Part shown: positions 1,052 through 40,887 of the stretch, one piece after another
Numbering within the stretch: position 1 is the first letter of the stretch
Layout of the letters: every line of letters starts with the position of its first letter
From: a virus
Virus genome (UHGV): UHGV-1357962
Strand: one strand, 5' to 3'
Length of the DNA: 41,089 bases
Position numbers and translations under genes: made by a program
Notes under the pieces: model-generated
The model's input: the letters and a program-made list of their open reading frames with translations, nothing else
Databases searched by the model: none
What the model was told of the DNA's origin: nothing

Positions 1052-1199
1052 TACCAGCTGCGACTGGATGAAACCAATCTGGCTTGACCGCACTGAAATC
1101 GACCACATGACCGACGGCACGCTGCGCCAGATTCTGACCCACAACGAAACGTGGAAGAAAAAGTGTAACGATGACAAAATGCCATCGCGGAAAGGTTGA
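969..1199 (+). CDS. o-spanin (Rz1-like) lipoprotein, overlapping the 3' part of the i-spanin gene in another frame.
   Basis: Signal peptide with lipobox-like ...LALSATSC. It starts within the Rz-like gene in a different frame and extends past it (overlapped Rz/Rz1 architecture). Confidence 0.5.
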   Translation: MLKMKLCAAILALSATSCATNGPVQVIDTSCDWMKPIWLDRTEIDHMTDGTLRQILTHNETWKKKCNDDKMPSRKG

Positions 1200-1210
1200 C
1201 ACGATAATCA

Positions 1211-1257
1211 GATTTGGTGATACTAACACAACAACGTTGCTCCCGTTGTGGTTAACC
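1211..1257. repeat. Direct repeat copy R1 (GATTTGGTGA-N19-CTCCCGTTGTGGTTAA) in the non-coding block.
   Basis: It matches R2 at 1579-1626 (GATTTGGTGA-N16-CTCTTGCCGTTGTGGTAAT). A third TTGGTGAAAA lies at 1440-1449. Confidence 0.5.
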
Positions 1258-11130: not shown

Positions 11131-11143
11131 ACGCCCCTAATGG

Positions 11144-11171
11144 TTGACACAATATAAATAGAGTGTATGCT
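11144..11171 (+). promoter_or_regulatory. Sigma70-like promoter of the moron cassette (GGTTGACAC -35, 16-nt spacer, TATGCT -10).
   Basis: Perfect TTGACA at 11144-11149. The predicted transcript 5' end falls on ATCAACCACAGAGAGG, which resembles the leaders at 12796 and 38029. Confidence 0.5.
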
Positions 11172-11201
11172 TACCACATCAACCACAGAGAGGAAATTGA
11201 A

Positions 11202-11645
11202 ATGGGTTATTCAATAACGATTGGAGAATTGAAAGTAAGAAAATATCCAGAAGATGGAATTGAATGTAGTTGCATATCCTTCTCCGCTGATGGGATCAGT
11301 CGTGATGATGCGCCAGCATTTGGGGAACCAACTGATTTTACAAACTCAAGATGGCCTTCATATTCTGCATGGTCAAACTTCCTTGATTACGCAGGGCTTT
11401 ACGATGCATTTTTCTGCAATGGAGGGTTGATTGGAGGGCACCCTGGTGTTCGACTGGTCACAAAGGAAATGCTTGAGTTAATTCAGCAATCAAAAGCAAA
11501 TATGGAATCTGCCAGCCCGCCACCGGTTGCCACAATGGATAATTATACCGAGAAAAACGGATACTACTGCCGAATTATTTGGCTTGAATACTGGTGCAAA
11601 TGGGCGCTGGAGAACTGTGAAACACCTGTAATTGCAAACTCATAA
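11202..11645 (+). CDS. Hypothetical moron protein (147 aa), AT-rich with atypical codon usage.
   Basis: GC content is markedly lower than the flanking tail genes. RBS AGAGGAAA. No domain recognised. Confidence 0.5.
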   Translation: MGYSITIGELKVRKYPEDGIECSCISFSADGISRDDAPAFGEPTDFTNSRWPSYSAWSNFLDYAGLYDAFFCNGGLIGGHPGVRLVTKEMLELIQQSKANMESASPPPVATMDNYTEKNGYYCRIIWLEYWCKWALENCETPVIANS

Positions 11646-11656
11646 GGAGAATAACA

Positions 11657-11956
11657 ATGAGCAACATCTACTGCCGCGCTTGCGGCGCACAAATCCACGA
11701 ATCAGCCACCGATTGCCCAAACTGCGGAGCGAAACAACAGGTTTACACCAAGAGCAAAGTTACCGCTGTGCTGCTTTGCTTTTTCTTCGGTTTTATTGGA
11801 ATCCACCGCTTCTATCTTGGGCGCCCGTTTTCCGGCGTGATGTACATTCTTTTTTGCTGGACTGGCATCACATTTTTCGTTGCGTTTATCGAGTTCATTA
11901 TCCTGCTGTGTACCAGTGAGCAGGAAATTAACCGTAAGTATGGGGTGAAGAAATGA
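11657..11956 (+). CDS. Zn-ribbon plus TM2-domain membrane protein (99 aa).
   Basis: An N-terminal CxxC...CxxC (YCRACGAQ...CPNCGA) is followed by a TM2-like motif (KSKVTAVLLCFFFGFIGIHRFYLG) and a second TM helix. AAGGAG RBS. Confidence 0.65.
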   Translation: MSNIYCRACGAQIHESATDCPNCGAKQQVYTKSKVTAVLLCFFFGFIGIHRFYLGRPFSGVMYILFCWTGITFFVAFIEFIILLCTSEQEINRKYGVKK

Positions 11957-12489
11957 AACTGAAAATCAGCAAAATCATGCTTGAGTCTACGCACATCTTC
12001 CGCGCAAAAGCGGACATTCGTTACTATCTTAACGGCGTGTGCTTCATGCCTGGCGGAAAGCTGGCGGCAACTGACGGTCATCGTTTATTCATTGGACAGC
12101 ACGACAACGAGCTAACCGAAAACGCAATTCTCAGCATCGAAAAGGCTCCGCACAAGCGATACGCATACGCTGTTTGCGATACCGATAGCGGGCTTGTTGA
12201 GTTCTTCAATGATTCTGACGCCCGCGTCGGCGTGGCGCTATGCCAGTTAATTGATGGTAGGTATCCTGATGTTGAGCGCATCATGCCTAATGAAACGAAT
12301 GCCGTTGACAGAATCAGATTCAATGCCGGTTATCTGGCTGATGTCGAGAAGTGTGCGAAGCTGTTCAATTCTAAGTGGCCTAACGTCACATTTGAACTGC
12401 AAGGGAATGATAAGGCAGCAGTCGCCACGGTTAAATCACCAACTGGCGAGAGCGCGAAGATTATCGTTATGCCGATGAGGATTGACTGA
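11953..12489 (+). CDS. Truncated beta-sliding-clamp (DnaN domain II/III-like) homolog, 178 aa.
   Basis: ATDGHRL (cf. E. coli DnaN ATDGHRLAV) and a C-terminal ...IIVMPMRID (cf. DnaN C-terminus ...YVVMPMRL). It has no domain I equivalent. ATGA-coupled to the upstream gene. Confidence 0.5.
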   Translation: MKLKISKIMLESTHIFRAKADIRYYLNGVCFMPGGKLAATDGHRLFIGQHDNELTENAILSIEKAPHKRYAYAVCDTDSGLVEFFNDSDARVGVALCQLIDGRYPDVERIMPNETNAVDRIRFNAGYLADVEKCAKLFNSKWPNVTFELQGNDKAAVATVKSPTGESAKIIVMPMRID

Positions 12490-12749
12490 TGATCGAGTGG
12501 ATTAAATGCAGTGATCGGTTGCCGGAATGCGCTTATGGTTACTTTCTGGTTTGCAGGGTTTACCATGCGCAAGGAAGCGCTCCGCACGTCATGCCATCTT
12601 TTTACATAAAGGACAGGGAGCAAGCAAGAGAGCAGCTTCCATATTTCTCAAGAAAAACGCAGGGAAAGTATTCTGTTCATTTCCAAGCCGCAGAGCCTGG
12701 ATTTATAATTACCCACTGGATGCCGCTACCAGAGCCACCAACAGAATAA
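12489..12749 (+). CDS. DUF551-family phage protein (86 aa).
   Basis: IKCSDRLPE...WMPLPEPP signature. ATGA overlap with the upstream gene. A terminator follows. Confidence 0.6.
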   Translation: MIEWIKCSDRLPECAYGYFLVCRVYHAQGSAPHVMPSFYIKDREQAREQLPYFSRKTQGKYSVHFQAAEPGFIITHWMPLPEPPTE

Positions 12750-12769
12750 GCCCCTCACGGGGCTTTTTT
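12749..12769 (+). terminator. Rho-independent terminator (AGCCCC-tcac-GGGGCT followed by a T run).
   Basis: Perfect 6-bp stem plus TTTTTT. Confidence 0.75.
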
Positions 12770-12785
12770 CATTCCCCTCCCTCCG

Positions 12786-12808
12786 TGTTATAATTATGTC
12801 AACCAAAC
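12786..12808 (+). promoter_or_regulatory. Extended -10 promoter (TGtTATAAT) fused to the conserved ATGTCAACC element. Candidate promoter of the tail chaperone/TMP operon.
   Basis: TG at 12786-87 and TATAAT at 12789-94, then ATGTCAACCAAAC at 12796-12808, the GGAG RBS and the ATG at 12822. Confidence 0.45.
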
Positions 12809-12821
12809 ATGGAGACCAATC

Positions 12822-13166
12822 ATGCAACTCAAAGACATCAAAGCAGGCGAACACACTTTCAGCGTAGTCATGCCAACCACCCGCGAAGGCTTCCGCATTC
12901 AGGCCAAGCTGATGAACATCGCGGCGCTGACCTACCAGGGCAAGCTGCAAGGTGATGAGCAATACGACCTGCTGAAATCCATGCTGAATGGCGCAGAAGT
13001 CGATAACCAGCCGCTTGACTTCGATAAATTCTTCGAAGGCCAGATTGACCTCGCTGATACCGTTTTCTTTGCTTACGTCAAGGAGATGTACCCGAGTTTT
13101 TTGGGGAAGGCGACCGCTATGTTTCAACGCAAGATGGCGGAGAACTCCGGGTCGGCGGAAAGCTGA
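12822..13166 (+). CDS. Tail assembly chaperone (G-like), 114 aa.
   Basis: Position immediately upstream of the tape measure gene. A slippery heptamer and an open -1 frame lie downstream (see the next two features). Confidence 0.6.
   Translation: MQLKDIKAGEHTFSVVMPTTREGFRIQAKLMNIAALTYQGKLQGDEQYDLLKSMLNGAEVDNQPLDFDKFFEGQIDLADTVFFAYVKEMYPSFLGKATAMFQRKMAENSGSAES
13097..13103 (+). other. Candidate -1 programmed ribosomal frameshift site, T TTT TTG (X XXY YYZ) in the chaperone gene.
   Basis: The heptamer is in the zero frame of the G-like gene. The -1 frame is open from 13103 to 13363 (86 codons) with no start codon of its own and ends at the TMP start (ctgATGgca). Confidence 0.5.
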
Positions 13167-22520: not shown

Positions 22521-23216
22521 ATGGCTCTGCCAGCAGATTTCAGTAAGATTTTCGGTTCTACCGCCACTGGTGGATTGACGCCAATCGGTGATGTTAACTA
22601 TGCAAAGGGTTGGGAATTTGTTGGTTCAAACCCCCCAACGAAAAATGACTTCAGCTATCTGCAAAATTTATCAGACCTGAAATCTCAATGGCTATATTCA
22701 AATAAGCTACAAAGAACAGACCCATTCGGGGACATCAAATCTGATGGTGCAGCAGCAGTGTCAAAAGCACACGCAAATCTTGGTCTTGGAGAAGCGGCAA
22801 AAAGGAGCGTGGGGACAGGTAGCAATCAACTCCCGGACATGTCCACATTTGGTATGTCGCGAAACGGACAAACTTCTTGGGATATCCTCCCAAATGGTAT
22901 GATTCGACAGGCCGGCACTGTGACACTGACACCAGTTGGTAACTTCAACTCTCGGGTTCTTGGTGGGGTAACGTACTACACCCATTACTACAGGGTTAAT
23001 TTCCCCAGACAATTCCCAAATGCACAAATAGCAACGCTGGCAACACTAGCGAGCTACCCCTATTCGGACCAGGCAACAATGGCCGGAAAATCACTGGCAA
23101 CGCATCGCGATACTGATTCTGGCTCTGACGTATCAAGAACGCGATTCACTGTGGCGTATACGACACCCAATCTTGGCGAAATACCGACACTGCATTTTGA
23201 ATCAATAGGATACTAA
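22521..23216 (+). CDS. Short tail fiber protein (231 aa).
   Basis: GAGGTGA RBS, low GC, terminal position in the tail module. Confidence 0.45.
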   Translation: MALPADFSKIFGSTATGGLTPIGDVNYAKGWEFVGSNPPTKNDFSYLQNLSDLKSQWLYSNKLQRTDPFGDIKSDGAAAVSKAHANLGLGEAAKRSVGTGSNQLPDMSTFGMSRNGQTSWDILPNGMIRQAGTVTLTPVGNFNSRVLGGVTYYTHYYRVNFPRQFPNAQIATLATLASYPYSDQATMAGKSLATHRDTDSGSDVSRTRFTVAYTTPNLGEIPTLHFESIGY

Positions 23217-25188: not shown

Positions 25189-25397
25189 TACTTAATCCTC
25201 ATTGCTGACTGCTTCATCTTGGCTTCACGACGGGCATTCATCAGGCAGAAGTCGAAAGCCTTTCCATTCGGGAAGTCTGACTTTCTCAGATACAAATCTA
25301 GCGCCGCATCTGCGCCCACCTCCGCCGCCTCATGACTGAAACCTTCGCTGATTAAAATCTTCTTGATGTTTCTCTGGATAAATTCTTCGCGGTTCAT
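25188..25397 (-). CDS. Hypothetical 69-aa protein upstream of RecT.
   Basis: Strong AGGAGA RBS. TAATG-coupled to recT. Confidence 0.45.
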   Translation of the reverse strand: MNREEFIQRNIKKILISEGFSHEAAEVGADAALDLYLRKSDFPNGKAFDFCLMNARREAKMKQSAMRIK

Positions 25398-25424
25398 TTC
25401 AGTTCTCCTTCTGATATTATGTCA

Positions 25425-25453
25425 ACCTTAAACAAAAGCGGCAAGATAGTCAA
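25425..25453 (-). promoter_or_regulatory. Candidate internal promoter (TTGACT-17-TAAGGT) whose start region overlaps the conserved GGTTGACATAAT element.
   Basis: TTGACT at 25453..25448 and TAAGGT at 25430..25425. The conserved element lies at 25427..25415, directly upstream of the RBS of the 25397 gene. Confidence 0.3.
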
Positions 25454-25844
25454 CCCATGCCTGTTTAAAAGCTGAAGCGCCGTAGCACAATGCCGCAAAC
25501 TTTTTCTGAGCAACGGCGTTGGTCAAAAATTCCCGCTGCTCTTTGCTAACTGATGACTTAGACTTGATAGCTCTCTTCATCTCAAAAACCGCGCCAGTGC
25601 CCCACAGCGTGACGATATCGCTCACCCCTGACGTTACCCCTTGCTGCTGAAGAGAAGCCCTGTGCTGAGGCTTAGAATCGCTCTCGTTAGGCACATGGAA
25701 CGTCACCTTTCTGGCTTCATGGTAAAACTCCTTCAGCCAGGCCATAGCGTCAATCTGCTCTGAAACCTCAAGTCGGCAATCTCCTTTTGCCTCATCATCC
25801 CAGTAAATCCAGTATCCGTCTGCGTGCTGCTTTTTGACTATCAT
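25428..25844 (-). CDS. VRR-NUC domain nuclease (138 aa).
   Basis: ...GVSDIVTLWGTGAVFEMKR... is the PD-(D/E)xK VRR-NUC motif. ATGA-coupled to the helicase gene. Confidence 0.6.
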   Translation of the reverse strand: MIVKKQHADGYWIYWDDEAKGDCRLEVSEQIDAMAWLKEFYHEARKVTFHVPNESDSKPQHRASLQQQGVTSGVSDIVTLWGTGAVFEMKRAIKSKSSVSKEQREFLTNAVAQKKFAALCYGASAFKQAWVDYLAAFV

Positions 25845-27590: not shown

Positions 27591-28364
27591 TCATTTCCCT
27601 GACAGGTAATCGTTGATAATTTTTTCTACCATGACAGCGTCTTCCTGGCTCATGGTGTATGTTCCACCGCAGCGCTCCGCACGGCACATAATCTCAGCCA
27701 GCATCCGACCAGCCTTAGCATTGAACTTCGGTGCGGCGCTTACTTTCTTCTTGCCCTGGGCGACGGCTTTCTCTTTCAGCTCCTCAGCTACCGCGCCAGC
27801 ATTTGCGCCATGCTCTTTCTGCAATGCGATAGCGGTGGTGTAACTCATGTCACCCTTCTTCACCATGTCTTTGATTGGCTGCTCGCAGTCGATAAGCTGG
27901 AGGTGATTCAGTACATCACTAGCGCTGAGCTTTACCTTTCTTGCAATCTCCTCGTTGGTGAGTCCCTGATTGCGCATGCGACGGTATGCCTCAGCTCGCT
28001 CCATCGGGCTTAATGAGCGACCCTGAGAGCTTGTAACCATGAACGCCACCTTGTCGGCCTCGTTGCCTGTGAAGTCATTGCACTCAAGGCGTATATCGTG
28101 ACCATCTGCCTGCGCCAGTAATGCGCCGTGGTATCGGTGATGGCCGTCGATAATCTTCACGCCCTGAGATGTAACCTCAACAGCCAGTGCCGGAACATAT
28201 TCGCCTGCGGAATAAGCCTGGCGGAACTCTTCTACATGCTCAGGGTCGATGTCACGGATGTTAAAACCAGGCTCGACGTAAAGCTCATTGAGCGGAACCA
28301 TGAAAGTTTTGCGAACTGTGGTGTTTGTCTTCTTGCTGCTGTAGTGCTGGTTTAAAGTAGCCAT
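27591..28364 (-). CDS. ParB-like nuclease-domain protein (~257 aa from the ATG at 28364).
   Basis: ...FNIRDIDPEHVEEFRQAYSAGEYVPALAV...IIDGHHRYHGALLA... is the ParB N-terminal domain. An AGGAG RBS sits before the ATG at 28364, while the longer TTG/ATG at 28430 lacks an RBS. Confidence 0.7.
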   Translation of the reverse strand: MATLNQHYSSKKTNTTVRKTFMVPLNELYVEPGFNIRDIDPEHVEEFRQAYSAGEYVPALAVEVTSQGVKIIDGHHRYHGALLAQADGHDIRLECNDFTGNEADKVAFMVTSSQGRSLSPMERAEAYRRMRNQGLTNEEIARKVKLSASDVLNHLQLIDCEQPIKDMVKKGDMSYTTAIALQKEHGANAGAVAEELKEKAVAQGKKKVSAAPKFNAKAGRMLAEIMCRAERCGGTYTMSQEDAVMVEKIINDYLSGK

Positions 28365-28392: not shown

Positions 28393-28420
28393 ATCCTATC
28401 ACTTAACCTTATAATGTCAA
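28393..28420 (-). promoter_or_regulatory. Candidate sigma70 promoter (GTGGTTGACAT -35, 16-nt spacer, TAGGAT -10) upstream of the ParB-like gene. Contains the conserved element.
   Basis: Perfect TTGACA at 28420..28415 and TAGGAT at 28398..28393. The element overlaps the stop codon of the DnaB-like gene. Confidence 0.4.
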
Positions 28421-28426
28421 CCACAA

Positions 28427-31855: not shown

Positions 31856-32103
31856 TCCTTGCTCTCCCATGTCTTTATGTTTTCTCCACAGAAAGGGCAG
31901 AAGTTCATCGCCACTCCCCGGCCAACATAATCCCCTGAATGCAGCTGAACAATGTCAATTCCTGGCTCTCCGGTCTTCATGTTCACGCGCTCAGGAACAA
32001 AGCATCCCTTCTGCCGAAAAGATGGATTTCCGTACTCAAGTGATTTTTGTAGGGTGTGGCATCGAGATATTTTGTTGCCTATTACTTTACATTTGATTTG
32101 CAT
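31852..32103 (-). CDS. Small Zn-binding protein (83 aa), first gene of the leftward early operon.
   Basis: AGGAGG RBS. C-terminal CPFCGE plus upstream Cys/His residues. Confidence 0.5.
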   Translation of the reverse strand: MQIKCKVIGNKISRCHTLQKSLEYGNPSFRQKGCFVPERVNMKTGEPGIDIVQLHSGDYVGRGVAMNFCPFCGENIKTWESKE

Positions 32104-32126: not shown

Positions 32127-32155
32127 AATCTACAGTCCAGATATGGTTATGTCAA
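32127..32155 (-). promoter_or_regulatory. Leftward early promoter (GTGGTTGACAT -35, 17-nt spacer, TAGATT -10). Contains the conserved element.
   Basis: Perfect TTGACA at 32155..32150 and TAGATT at 32132..32127, followed by the leader and AGGAGG RBS of the gene starting at 32103. Confidence 0.5.
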
Positions 32156-32191
32156 CCACGACTTTAATCTTTTGTTTTTGCTTCTCATCTC

Positions 32192-32220
32192 TTGACTTTA
32201 TAAGAATAATATGATAAACT
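32192..32220 (+). promoter_or_regulatory. Rightward sigma70-like promoter (TTGACT-17-TAAACT).
   Basis: Hexamers at 32192-97 and 32215-20. A perfect hairpin (CCCTGT-taaggt-ACAGGG, 32225-32243) lies just downstream of the predicted start. Confidence 0.45.
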
Positions 32221-32314
32221 CACACCCTGTTAAGGTACAGGGGGAGTGGAGTGGCTAACGTATACTCCCGCCACCCTATCATCCTACAGGGAGTGAGAAT
32301 CAATCATAAGCATA

Positions 32315-32376: not shown

Positions 32377-32862
32377 ATGAAACGTAAGCCATCCCCACAC
32401 TATGCAAACCTTGCCGCTCAGGTTGAAAAACTCATCGCTGAAGTGAAAGAGCTTAAACTCCAGGTGAAGGCGCTTAAGTCGGGAAATAAATCACAGCCAT
32501 CTGACGACTCGCCAGTCATCGACATGGCTCCATTCATTGCCAAAGCCCATGAAATTGACCCGGACTTAATCCCTGTTACTGACCTGATGAAAAAATATGG
32601 GTTCAAGAGCTGGGCAACGGTGGTGAATATCCTGCGCAACGTGCAGATGACGGAAGAGGTTGAGGTTGATGGGCACATCCGCACCTTCACGCATAAGGTG
32701 AACGGCGATTTCTGGCTGCGGGATGTGGTAAATAACGCAGAGTATCGGCCTTCTGATGGGCGACTAATGTGCAAAGAGGCATCAGAATCAGGCAAGAAGA
32801 TGGGCACATTCTCCATCCCCCGCAACTGGGTGCGCAGCGAAATCAAATCATACCGAGGTTGA
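32377..32862 (+). CDS. Putative regulatory protein (161 aa) with an N-terminal coiled coil and a Rha/KilA-like C-terminal region. First gene of the rightward operon.
   Basis: Strong AGGAG RBS. ...DLMKKYGFKSWATVVNILRNV... resembles phage Rha-type regulatory domains (weak call). Confidence 0.45.
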   Translation: MKRKPSPHYANLAAQVEKLIAEVKELKLQVKALKSGNKSQPSDDSPVIDMAPFIAKAHEIDPDLIPVTDLMKKYGFKSWATVVNILRNVQMTEEVEVDGHIRTFTHKVNGDFWLRDVVNNAEYRPSDGRLMCKEASESGKKMGTFSIPRNWVRSEIKSYRG

Positions 32863-32887
32863 CACTGTTTCATTGCGGGGTGATAAT
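32859..32887 (+). promoter_or_regulatory. Near-consensus sigma70 promoter (TTGACA-17-GATAAT).
   Basis: TTGACA overlaps the upstream stop codon. 17-nt spacer. GATAAT at 32882-87. Confidence 0.55.
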
Positions 32888-34071: not shown

Positions 34072-35455
34072 ACTTTCCGCCGACGAAATCGCCACACTGC
34101 GATGCGACCTCCTGGAGTTTTCCAAATACATGTTCAAGGCCCGAAAGGGCTTTGACTTTGTGGAGAACTGGCATCACGCGAAAATCTGTGAGGCACTGGA
34201 GCGATGCTTTATCGGCCAGTACAAGCGCCTGATTATCAATATCCCCCCTCGATACTCAAAGACCGAGCTTGCCGTTGTCAACTTCATGGCCTGGGCTATC
34301 GGGAACTACCCGGATTGCGAATTTATCCACGCCAGCTACTCCAAGCGACTTGCTGCCAATAATACCTACCAGGCCCGCGCTATCGCCATGTCAGAGGAAT
34401 ATCATGCTGTGTTTGGTGATATCGGCATGATGGCGGATGCCAAGGCCAAGGATGAATGGCGCACGAAAACAGGCGGCTGCGTCTATGCCACTGGCTCTGA
34501 AGGCACAATCACAGGGTACGGTGCGGGCAGGCTGCGTGAAGGATTCGGCGGCGCAATCATAATTGACGATCCGCATAAGGCAAGCGAGGCTAATTCTGAC
34601 ACCATGCGCCAGAATGTCATTGACTGGTTCCAGACCACGATGGAGTCGCGTCTGAACAGCCCTGACACGCCAATTATCGTTATTATGCAGCGGCTACACG
34701 AGGAAGACCTTGCAGGATGGCTACAGGCTGGCGGCAATGGCGAGGAATGGCATGTACTTAGTATTCCTGCCATAAACCCTGATGACACCGCTTTGTGGCC
34801 CTTTAAGCACTCCCGAGAGAAGCTGGCAGAGATGGAGGCCAGTAATCCCTACGTGTTCGCAGGTCAGTACATGCAGCGCCCTGCACCAAAAGGCGGCGGC
34901 CTGTTCAAAGACAGCTGGTGGCAGTGGTACGACAACAGCTTTGTACACCCGGAGTGGGATTATCGCGTTATATACGCAGATACCGCGCTCAAAACAAAAG
35001 AGCACAACGACTGGTCTGTATTCCAGTGCTGGGGATTTAAAAACGGACACGCCTATCTCCTGGACCAGATTCGTGGTAAATGGGAAGCGCCAGAACTCAT
35101 CAAACAGGCTCGCGCATTCTGGGATTTGCACAAATCACCCATTAACCGTGGCGTTGTTCGTGGAATGAAGATTGAGGATAAGGCTAGTGGAACCGGGCTG
35201 ATTCAGACCCTGAAGATGGAAGGCGTTCCGGTAATCCCGATTCAGCGATCGGTTGATAAATTCACTCGCGCTCTGGATGTCCTTCCACAGATTGAAGCTG
35301 GGCTGGTTCACCTGCCGAAGGATGCTCCGTGGATGCCCGCATACATCGGTGAGTTTTCTGTATTCCCTAACGGGAAGCACGATGACCAGGTTGACCCTAC
35401 GCTAGACGCCATATCTGACAACCTTGTCACCGGCTACAACCTTTCCGCCTGGTAA
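34055..35455 (+). CDS. Terminase large subunit (466 aa).
   Basis: An N-terminal ATPase region (...HHAKICEALERCF...RLIINIPPRYSKTEL...) and a C-terminal nuclease domain with acidic residues (IYADTAL...DWSVFQ...). Confidence 0.8.
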   Translation: MKPKSKLSADEIATLRCDLLEFSKYMFKARKGFDFVENWHHAKICEALERCFIGQYKRLIINIPPRYSKTELAVVNFMAWAIGNYPDCEFIHASYSKRLAANNTYQARAIAMSEEYHAVFGDIGMMADAKAKDEWRTKTGGCVYATGSEGTITGYGAGRLREGFGGAIIIDDPHKASEANSDTMRQNVIDWFQTTMESRLNSPDTPIIVIMQRLHEEDLAGWLQAGGNGEEWHVLSIPAINPDDTALWPFKHSREKLAEMEASNPYVFAGQYMQRPAPKGGGLFKDSWWQWYDNSFVHPEWDYRVIYADTALKTKEHNDWSVFQCWGFKNGHAYLLDQIRGKWEAPELIKQARAFWDLHKSPINRGVVRGMKIEDKASGTGLIQTLKMEGVPVIPIQRSVDKFTRALDVLPQIEAGLVHLPKDAPWMPAYIGEFSVFPNGKHDDQVDPTLDAISDNLVTGYNLSAW

Positions 35456-37995: not shown

Positions 37996-38024
37996 TTGAT
38001 ATGAGTAAGATTACCATGTATTAT
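37996..38024 (+). promoter_or_regulatory. Rightward sigma70-like promoter (TTGATA-17-TATTAT) whose predicted start coincides with the conserved ATGTCAACCACA element.
   Basis: Hexamers at 37996-38001 and 38019-38024. The leader reads GTCAACCACAATGTGAGG followed by the ATG at 38056. On the - strand the same element gives TTGACA (38035..38030). Confidence 0.5.
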
Positions 38025-38035
38025 GTTCATGTCAA
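38008..38035 (-). promoter_or_regulatory. Possible divergent leftward promoter (GTGGTTGACAT -35, 16-nt spacer, TAATCT -10) for the 37966-35478 early cluster.
   Basis: Perfect -35 but a weak -10. It is the only promoter-like sequence upstream of this - strand cluster. Confidence 0.25.
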
Positions 38036-38055
38036 CCACAATGTGAGGTATTGAG

Positions 38056-38415
38056 ATGAAAGATTATGCGAGCATGAGTGATTTTGAGATTAACCGGGCT
38101 GTCGGTGATATCATCTTTGGTGGATTATGGTGCTGCAGACCTGGTACATCAGGGAATGAAAGTGATAGCTGGTACTATGGAAATGCAGATGCGACATTCA
38201 ATCCGCTCTCTCCTTTGCCTGACTACTGCAACAACCAGGCAGACGCTTGGCCGATTATTACGGGAAATCGCATTGGGGTTATACCAGCTCCAGAGCATGG
38301 TGCGTGGCGGGCAGCCCACCGAGTTATTGGAGAAGATAGCAATCCTCGCCACTTTACCCAGGACACCAACCCGCTCCGCGCCGCCATGATTGTATTCCTG
38401 AAGATGAAGGAGTGA
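38056..38415 (+). CDS. NinX-like protein (DUF2591), 119 aa.
   Basis: DYASMSDFEINRAVGDII...NNQADAWPIITGNRIGV...NPLRAAMIVFLKMKE matches the NinX/DUF2591 pattern. Confidence 0.65.
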   Translation: MKDYASMSDFEINRAVGDIIFGGLWCCRPGTSGNESDSWYYGNADATFNPLSPLPDYCNNQADAWPIITGNRIGVIPAPEHGAWRAAHRVIGEDSNPRHFTQDTNPLRAAMIVFLKMKE

Positions 38416-40521: not shown

Positions 40522-40782
40522 CTATTCTCCGAGTGCTTTGTTGATTGCTGCTTGTGCTGATTGAAGCTCTTCTGGGTATGCATCATTCCAGTTTTGCTTA
40601 TACGCTTTGCTGACCATTTTCTGCAAGGCCTCCAGCAATTCAGGCGCTGCGGCGATAAGGTCTTTGTTTGCTTTGTTTGTCATTTCGGCAGGGTATCCCT
40701 TTCCGAACACGATGTGATTATTGTTGCCAAGACCTTCTTCATCCCAATACCACGGACCAGGCGTACCTTTAAACTCTTTCAC
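40522..40782 (-). CDS. Hypothetical 86-aa protein (GTG start, GGAG RBS), first gene of the leftward operon.
   Basis: GGAG 7 nt upstream of the GTG. Downstream of the candidate promoter at 40840..40813. Confidence 0.4.
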   Translation of the reverse strand: MKEFKGTPGPWYWDEEGLGNNNHIVFGKGYPAEMTNKANKDLIAAAPELLEALQKMVSKAYKQNWNDAYPEELQSAQAAINKALGE

Positions 40783-40812
40783 ATTCTTTCTCCACTTGTT
40801 GTTGATTGGGAA

Positions 40813-40840
40813 ATCTTAACTCATCCAGCTCTTATGTCAA
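40813..40840 (-). promoter_or_regulatory. Leftward promoter (GTGGTTGACAT -35, 16-nt spacer, TAAGAT -10). Contains the conserved element.
   Basis: Perfect TTGACA at 40840..40835 and TAAGAT at 40818..40813, then the leader and GGAG RBS of the gene at 40782. Confidence 0.4.
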
Positions 40841-40887
40841 CCACTATATCAATCTATTTTCACCAGTGTCATTTTGTGCTCTTTCTT

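Follow-up and report, generated by a model that had tools for sequence, protein, structure and literature searches.

Strong sigma-70 early promoters of coliphages are used by unmodified host RNA polymerase right after infection, and a G directly 5′ of the −35 hexamer, which is common in strong promoters, is present in GTGTTGACA of lambda PL, GGTTGACA of T7 A3 and TGTTGACA of the trp/tac promoters. Repeated sites of another kind are found in mycobacteriophage L5, which is temperate and has more than 20 stoperator sites together with a known repressor, gp71. Here we examine a repeated motif, ATGTCAACC(AC), in the virus genome UHGV-1357962, whose 41,089 nucleotides were analysed as a whole (hereafter, the window). 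An earlier note, made by a model from the sequence alone, had described this motif as a conserved intergenic element of fixed orientation and had proposed that it marks a phage-specific promoter class or a site for a regulator. Our analysis points to a simpler account, in which the repeats are quite probably, for the most part, the − strand −35 boxes of ordinary host-type sigma-70 early promoters and not a new kind of element.

The window represents the complete genome, of about 41 kb, of a phage that over most of this length shares ~90% identity with Escherichia phage BUCT618 (L001 among the related genomes used below), whose genome has the opposite orientation and on which our literature search found no publication. 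More distant kin are Yersinia phage PY100 and its relatives (38% amino-acid identity to the window in the helicase and ~50% in the capsid protein) and Vibrio phage 1.123.O (L012; 33% and about 50% respectively). We regard the window phage as a lytic, PY100-like small myovirus, PY100 itself having been described as a lytic 'dwarf' myovirus (PMC8309999). By PHROGs and Pfam assignments, the + strand genes encode lysis, portal, capsid, sheath, tail and terminase proteins, that is, late functions, and the − strand genes encode an exonuclease, RecT, a VRR-NUC protein, a helicase, a ParB-like protein, a primase/helicase, a methyltransferase, the single-stranded DNA-binding protein (SSB) and the products of small early open reading frames (ORFs). 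Several small proteins of the window received no assignment at all.

Results

The motif is exclusively intergenic

ATGTCAACC occurs exactly six times in the window, at 12796, 25419, 28414, 32149, 38029 and 40834, every time on the + strand, whereas 100 dinucleotide-preserving shuffles averaged 0.43 copies and never exceeded 2, and at the last four of these positions the 11-mer ATGTCAACCAC is exact. All six copies lie within the 8.9% of the window called intergenic, for which the chance value is (0.089)^6 = 5e-7, and all six supply a perfect TTGACA on the − strand; in these respects our counts and intergenic map agree with the earlier note. Its statement that half of the copies flank − strand genes needs correction, since five of the six are directly upstream of a − strand gene and only 12796 has a purely + strand setting. 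The wider 8-mer GGTTGACA is present in 10 copies over both strands (~1.2 expected), nine of them at intergenic or gene-end sites that resemble promoters. Across the genome, several coding-strand 8- and 9-mers are as enriched as the motif, whose distinctive trait is its exclusively intergenic location and not enrichment alone. The copies are dispersed, 2.8–12.6 kb apart, and form no iteron-like cluster.

Four full copies have the layout of − strand promoters

Read on the − strand, the copies at 28414, 32149, 38029 and 40834 have the form GTGGTTGACAT-N16/17-TAnnnT. Beyond it come a leader rich in CA, a ribosome-binding site and then the gene that opens a − strand unit; this gene begins 45–60 nt downstream and runs in the same direction. 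A −10 box of the TAnnnT type at 16–18 bp from the −35 box is present in these four of the six copies, and there is none for the hexamers at 25425 or 12802. The promoters at 28420, 32155 and 40840 match 10 of the 12 sigma-70 consensus positions and are among the best sites in the region, with −10 boxes and spacings just as first reported (Table 1). We therefore think it likely that the four full copies provide the −35 boxes for host sigma-70 promoters with early activity on the − strand. The putative promoter at 28414 sits just after the primase/helicase stop codon and would drive the ParB-like gene (27591-28364) and the helicase, and the unit starting at 40782 encodes an 86-aa protein, then a 289-aa protein and SSB.

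Some + strand boxes resembling −10 elements are found directly 5′ of GTCAACC, namely TATAAT at 28409, TGATATTAT at 25412 and TATGGT at 32142, and these, considered as possible antisense or late promoters, are only partly conserved in orthologues. Those at 25412-25420 and 28409-28414 are directed antisense, into the VRR-NUC/helicase and primase genes, and could be antisense promoters or simply a consequence of the A/T-rich sequence with which the − strand spacers start.

Hexamers and spacer length are kept while spacers drift

For comparison, about 10 further genomes of the window's clade were taken from IMG/VR and metagenomes, where a search for relatives at intermediate distance returned only primases with at least 90% or at most 30% amino-acid identity. 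Across this set the constant parts are TTGACAT, the −10 box, the leader and the length of the spacer; its sequence changes, and so does even the gene downstream. At the 32155 promoter, TTGACATAA, TAGATTT and the leader GAAAACAACAGGAG are invariant in nine distinct orthologues (a set that lacks the window's own copy, which the search pattern missed), the spacer is fixed in length with 13 of its 17 positions variable, and the gene that follows has at least four unrelated N-termini, counting that of the window. At the 28420 promoter, nine distinct sequences all have GTGGTTGACAT, with spacers that again vary, and are followed by one of two genes, the ParB-like gene or the helicase. In BUCT618, GTGTTTGACAT stands at two orthologous sites, and the counterpart of the 40840 promoter keeps this sequence and TAAGAT, with seven of the 16 spacer positions changed. 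Hexamers and spacer length that are kept while spacers drift would be the signature of sigma-70 promoters, with purifying selection acting on the −35 and −10 boxes.

The GTGG extension 5′ of the hexamer, which had been called conserved, is indeed the same in all four early promoters of the window but only partly so between orthologues, where GAGG or GTGT replaces it in some cases (32155 and 40840 promoters), so that the 9-mer ATGTCAACC is not itself the conserved unit. Further afield, PY100 has promoters of the form AAAAAAGTG-TTGACA-16/17-TATAAT-ATC(G/A)A..GGAG, and Vibrio phage 1.123.O has G-TTGACA promoters. The initial proposal that the element is promoter-associated, non-random and conserved in relatives is upheld.

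Orientation follows the early genes

The four full copies (ATGTCAACCAC on the + strand) share a single orientation because all early genes are on the − strand. Moreover, three copies of GGTTGACA belong to predicted + strand promoters of the form GGTTGACAC, at 1194, 11142 and 32857, and since they are inverted relative to the others the motif is not confined to one absolute orientation. The promoter at 32857 matches 11 of 12 consensus positions and its hexamers are kept in ten orthologues. Both the GGTTGACAC −35 box at 11142 and the degenerate copy ACATCAACCACA (11176-11187) downstream of it, listed in the earlier note, are present, and in two relatives (L009 and L010) the 11142-type promoter and its ATCAACCACA leader precede a different first gene. 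In PY100, in which gene order is different, related motifs follow gene direction. Fixed orientation thus ceases to be a puzzle: what appeared to be a mysterious strand-fixed element reflects early genes that share one strand and one type of promoter.

A CA-rich leader is shared by promoters on both strands

About 7 nt past the −10 box, the four full copies are followed by leaders with TCAACTAACAACAGGAG, AAACAACAGGAGG, ATCAACACGGGAG or ATCAACAACAAGTGGAG. CAAC(A/C/T)A or AACAAC occurs within 35 nt upstream of seven of nine promoter-proximal genes, taking both strands together, compared with two of 52 other genes (Fisher p = 3e-6, for a pattern chosen after looking at the data), and predicted promoter starts in PY100 have ATC(G/A)A(A/C)... 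followed by GGAG. The near-identical leaders previously noticed at 12796, 38029 and 11178 are thus real but not special to the element, (T)CAAC(A/C)ACA..GGAG being general on both strands. Most likely the leader is an unstructured CA-rich 5′ end that would favour promoter escape and/or ribosome loading. TCAACCAC is the reverse complement of GTGGTTGA, and at 38029 this is literal, with one stretch in both roles.

A predicted overlapping divergent pair at 38029

The copy at 38029, first noted for a + strand role, also bears a predicted − strand promoter. Its + strand partner at 37996 matches 10 of 12 consensus positions, and the overlap between the two is complete, with each −35 box placed at the other's predicted start site, so that RNA polymerase presumably binds one promoter or the other and not both. 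Both sets of hexamers are kept in BUCT618, L002 and L004, although the first gene downstream of the − promoter differs, and, unlike the other spacers, this one is conserved because two promoters overlap there. Divergent pairs had been thought to share the element more widely, its −35 box serving one strand and its +1 region the other; this applies to 38029 but not to 32149 and 40834, where the divergent + promoter (TTGACT at 32192 and 40888, respectively) lies back-to-back with the element without overlapping it. Vibrio phage 1.123.O has two fully overlapping divergent pairs, 7893/7932 and 43648/43687, whose inverted TTGACA boxes have the same 39-bp offset as 37996/38035, and one of them is in front of a gene for a winged-helix DNA-binding protein.

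Two copies that are not −35 boxes of complete promoters

The copy at 12796 begins 1 nt past the −10 box of a predicted + strand promoter at 12786 (TTTTCA-17-TATAAT, preceded by TG), which is located just after the terminator (12748-12765) that closes the inserted accessory-gene (moron) cluster 11142-12765 and would drive a tail-assembly-chaperone-like gene, 12822-13166. Here the block CGTGTTATAATTATGTCAAC(C/A)AAACA(C/T)GGAGAC is kept in six genomes, with variation in the −35 region and in the bases between the ribosome-binding site and ATG, and L010 has TCAACAAAACA, a C-to-A change that keeps the leader type and loses the GG of the − strand reading. Given this block conservation and the change in L010, we take the 12796 copy to be not a −35 box of the − strand but the start site, with leader, of a + strand promoter. 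We considered and rejected a − strand promoter at 12802, which would send a short antisense RNA into the terminator, since TAnnnT is missing at 16–18 bp and only a TGaCATAAT-like extended −10 is present. Extended −10 promoters of the form (C)GTG(A/T)TA(T/A)A(A/C/T)T are seen in the late + strand gaps at 2082, 9170, 12786 and 20664, with no good −35 box and often right after a terminator, which suggests that late promoters form a class of their own, one that may need an activator.

At 25419, the same position in four related contigs (L004, equivalent to L021, and L005, L019 and L025) has a full promoter, GGTTGACAC-16-TATGAT, with the leader ATCAAAAATCGGAGG and an extra small cysteine-rich gene, and in L003 the site has drifted to GGTTGACTC. 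From these few sequences the window's copy is best taken for a −35 box, orphan or vestigial, that remained where a cassette was gained or lost. The second GTCAACC reported nearby is present, at 25449-25455, and a weak alternative promoter can be drawn over the site, as TTGACT at 25453-17-TAAGGT or as TTGCCG-17-CATAAT preceded by TG. The extra gene (L004 13869-14160; also in L005, L019, L021 and L025) is zinc-ribbon-like, lies between the VRR-NUC gene and a 69-aa gene and is absent from the window, BUCT618, L003 and L018.

Table 1. Predicted promoters and copies of the motif in the window, with positions of their parts.
Feature	Position	Strand	−35 box	Spacer (bp)	−10 box	Context
Putative promoter, GGTTGACAC	1194..1224	+		17	GATACT	Upstream of region 1230-1830, without clear ORF
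Putative promoter of accessory-gene (moron) cluster, GGTTGACAC	11142..11187	+	11144-11149	16	TATGCT (11166-11171)	Leader ATCAACCACA at 11178-11187
Putative extended −10 promoter, then ATGTCAACCAA	12786..12806	+			TGtTATAAT (12786-12794)	Predicted start site/leader of 12822-13166
GGTTGACAT	25419..25427	−			None at 16–18 bp	Right after VRR-NUC stop codon; 22 nt from ATG at 25397
GTGGTTGACAT	28414..28424	−	28415-28420	16	TAGGAT (28393-28398)	Predicted internal early promoter
GTGGTTGACAT	32149..32159	−	32150-32155	17	TAGATT (32127-32132)	Leader AAACAACAGGAGG; unit starts at 32103
Putative promoter, GGTTGACAC	32857..32887	+		17	GATAAT	Inside end of gene 32377-32862; would drive 32912 onward (terminase operon)
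Putative promoter	37996..38024	+	TTGATA (37996-38001)	17	TATTAT (38019-38024)	Would drive NinX-like gene 38056-38415 (NinX Pfam match)
GTGGTTGACAT	38029..38039	−	TTGACA (38030-38035)	16	TAATCT (38008-38013)	Would drive first ORF, from 37982
GTGGTTGACAT	40834..40844	−	40835-40840, plus 5′ extension	16	TAAGAT	Predicted early promoter of unit starting at 40782
−10 box of the preceding promoter	40813..40818	−			TAAGAT	Leader 40783-40812, with ATCAACAACAAGTGGAG

Neighbouring features

Some features near these promoters merit description. The ~600 bp downstream of the promoter at 1196 (1230-1830) contain no convincing ORF and no tRNA; the equivalent region of BUCT618 has tRNA-Ile, and 1520-1791 matches, at ~95% identity, stretches without annotation in unrelated Salmonella phages, among them 64795_sal3 and SeSz-2. 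Neither the Rfam scan nor the tRNA scan of the window gave a hit. Within the moron cluster, the product of 11953-12489 (+) matches in Pfam, weakly and below the cutoff, the central domain of DNA polymerase III beta, the sliding clamp (E = 2.5e-4; 21.8 bits, cutoff 27).

Upstream of the terminase operon, between the putative promoters TTGACT-17-TAAACT (32192) and TTGACA-17-TACATT (32315), is a structured + strand stretch (32222-32312) with a hairpin, CCCUGU-UAAGGU-ACAGGG, and a similar second arm, CCCUAU..ACAGGG. It folds with an energy of −30.8 kcal/mol (z-score −2.3 against shuffles). Most of it is kept in L002 and L004, with greater divergence in BUCT618, and its role could be that of a leader RNA, of an attenuator or antitermination-type element, or of a site bound by a protein. 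The large-terminase gene of BUCT618 (20-2389) has ~970 bp more than that of the window, at a point corresponding to 34551-34556, and encodes 790 aa compared with 466 aa; the additional stretch resembles an insertion in frame, for example of an intein or a homing endonuclease. Finally, the BUCT618 coding sequence 12033-12809, annotated 'integrase', corresponds to window 22521-23216 and its product has a Gp53-like tail-fibre C-terminal domain, so the label is probably a misannotation.

Discussion

How the element would work as a promoter part

The element would be a −35 hexamer, TTGACA, with a flank typical of the lineage, GTGG on its 5′ side and T(A/T)A on its 3′ side. It would belong to a cassette that consists, in order, of an A/T-rich upstream region, GTG(G/T)TTGACAT, a 16–17 bp spacer and TAnnnT and then, ~7 bp past the −10 box, of a CA-rich leader, (A)TCAAC(A/C)ACA or AAACAAC, before GGAG and ATG. 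Host sigma-70 RNA polymerase would recognise these strong promoters and so start the early and replication units. At the two sites with other settings, the 12796 promoter would restart late transcription after the moron-cluster terminator, and 25419 would be an orphan −35 box at a position that in related contigs holds a complete promoter and an extra gene.

Several points weigh against so simple an account. Every promoter was assigned by consensus, and consensus matches number 28 and 24 against 18.5 ± 4.7 and 19.6 ± 4.2 respectively in shuffles, a total not clearly above expectation, so that weight can be given only to the intergenic sites with the highest scores. Two of the six copies do not supply the −35 box of a usable promoter, the explanations offered for both drawing on few sequences, and the −10 box of the 38035 promoter agrees with the consensus at only three of six positions. 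Identity exceeds 85% for nearly all close relatives, which limits the power of the conservation evidence. Furthermore, promoter function alone does not explain why GTGG is identical in four non-orthologous early promoters of the window that have unrelated spacers, and recognition by sigma-70 of the four bases 5′ of the −35 box is not known. The shared GTG(G/T) and T(A/T)A flanks could reflect a contribution to polymerase binding, an extra factor or cassette exchange.

Alternatives to a simple promoter

An extra factor is the basis of the alternative in which the element is an operator, so that a phage or host protein would bind the asymmetric GTGGTTGACAT(A/T)A (stretch GTGGTTGACATAA) and, because this site covers the −35 boxes of early promoters and, at 12796 and 25419, the start-site region, would shut off or time early transcription. 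We consider this improbable, even though it would account for GTGG and T(A/T)A at non-orthologous promoters beyond the needs of sigma-70, and even though the copies at 12796 and 25419, which cannot act as −35 boxes, would still block RNA polymerase if bound. The sequence expected to be read by such a protein is not stable: besides the GAGG and GTGT variants of the extension in orthologues, GGTTGACAT has become GGTTGACTC in L003 and the 12796 copy has lost its C in L010. It has no dyad symmetry, and every site is already explained by promoter parts. In favour of an operator, GGTTGACAC is at the predicted transcript start of gene 32377 in most relatives. As to a possible binder, among several early proteins without assigned function is that of 32377-32862, which has a helix-turn-helix-like stretch; nonetheless, PHROGs, Pfam and PDB sequence searches detected no repressor, Cro-like or other transcription-factor family, those against PDB with the proteins at 32377 and 35684 giving no matches. 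The only clear helix-turn-helix protein, the ParB-like product of 27591-28364, was rejected as the cognate binder because BUCT618, L002, L004 and L005 keep the motif but lack its gene. An immunity operator in a temperate phage was likewise rejected: among the 40 window proteins searched with PHROGs and Pfam there were no matches to an integrase, repressor, sigma factor or phage RNA polymerase, no lysogeny genes were seen, and the 'integrase' of BUCT618 is the Gp53-like tail-fibre protein.

A factor might instead act on top of sigma-70 promoters. In this rather unlikely extension, the bases that sigma-70 does not need, namely GTG(G/T), T(A/T)A and the (A)TCAAC(A/C)AC start, would be read by a phage or host protein that coordinates the switch from early to late transcription. 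The (A)TCAAC(A/C)AC transcript start is nearly the reverse complement of the −35 box with its GTG(G/T) and T(A/T)A flanks. Were this true, the pair 37996-38035 would be a conserved either/or transcription switch of the phage lineage, an idea suggested by the recurrence, twice, of its 39-bp geometry in the distant Vibrio phage.

Cassette exchange leads to a third alternative, which we hold to be distinctly unlikely as the main explanation: the promoter-plus-leader cassettes would be mainly recombination substrates for swapping gene modules, their uniformity coming from exchange and not from selection on each base. Conservation of the cassettes at 32155, 38035 and 11142 extends as far as the ribosome-binding site, beyond which the first gene differs, the 28420 promoter precedes one of two different genes, and 25419 resembles a scar from gain or loss of a promoter and its gene. 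Non-orthologous cassettes, however, share only ~11 bp and an 8–14 bp leader, with unrelated spacers, which is short for homologous recombination. Exchange of this sort is also compatible with sigma-70 promoters, and would add to that explanation rather than replace it.

The phage-specific promoter class suggested in the earlier note, whether for a T7-like single-subunit polymerase, of N4 type or for a phage sigma factor, found no support. The sites fit the −35/−10 layout of sigma-70 promoters and share only 11 bp, with unrelated spacers, instead of the long contiguous promoter (~18–23 bp) typical of such a class; the longest ORF of the window is 810 aa and none is near the ~880 aa of a T7-type RNA polymerase, in line with the negative protein searches. 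Lastly, an orientation-dependent signal in the DNA itself (replication iteron, DnaA-like box, Chi-like recombination signal or packaging signal) is scarcely credible and was rejected, for although all six 9-mers are on one strand and TCAACCACA matches the DnaA box TTATCCACA at seven of nine positions, the T at position 4 of that box, which is needed for binding, is absent, the copies are dispersed in intergenic DNA at promoter distance from gene starts, GGTTGACA is inverted at + strand promoters and in PY100 the related motifs turn with the genes.

Comparison with known systems

With ordinary sigma-70 promoters as the preferred reading, the analysis gives a usable predicted promoter map for the poorly studied small lytic myoviruses of E. 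coli and Yersinia (BUCT618 and PY100-like phages), comprising roughly ten sigma-70 promoters, an extended −10 class before late genes and one overlapping divergent pair. Such a map helps annotation, phage engineering and the design of transcript mapping, and it indicates no new mechanism.

In a perfect or near-perfect TTGACA, a 16–17 bp spacer, TAnnnT and an A/T-rich upstream region, the predicted early promoters resemble those of coliphages (lambda PL/PR, T7 A1–A3 and T5) and the E. coli trp/tac promoters, from which they differ in the GTG(G/T) flank and in weaker −10 boxes (TAGGAT, TAGATT, TAAGAT and TAATCT). The promoter set of PY100, with which the window shares genome modules, is also similar, its cassettes being made up of an A-tract, GTG, TTGACA, 16/17 bp, TATAAT, a CA-rich leader and GGAG. 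In PY100, however, GTG abuts the hexamer, whereas the window has one extra base (GTGG or GTGT); moreover, the −10 boxes of PY100 are close to the consensus TATAAT, a GC-rich stretch separates them from the start, and its gene modules are oriented differently.

Two further likenesses are of behaviour only. The stoperators of L5 and other cluster A phages are, like the window's copies, short asymmetric intergenic repeats, one of them over a −35 box, with an orientation that tracks the direction of transcription; by comparison, the window has 6–10 sites, no repressor or integrase was found in it and the flanks vary between orthologues. In T4-type phages, PeSL (promoter-early stem-loop) cassettes are repeated early promoters that border variable genes, as here, but the − strand cassettes of the window have no conserved stem-loop, their repeats are much shorter and recombination is suggested by gene replacements only. 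The cluster 11142-12765, with its own predicted promoter and a terminator, is built like the morons of lambdoid phages. Finally, the 37996-38035 pair recalls tetA/tetR and bioA/bioB of E. coli, in that opposite promoters share ~40 bp and polymerase binding should be mutually exclusive; unlike those systems, it has no known operator or regulator, and each of its −35 boxes coincides with the predicted start site of its partner.

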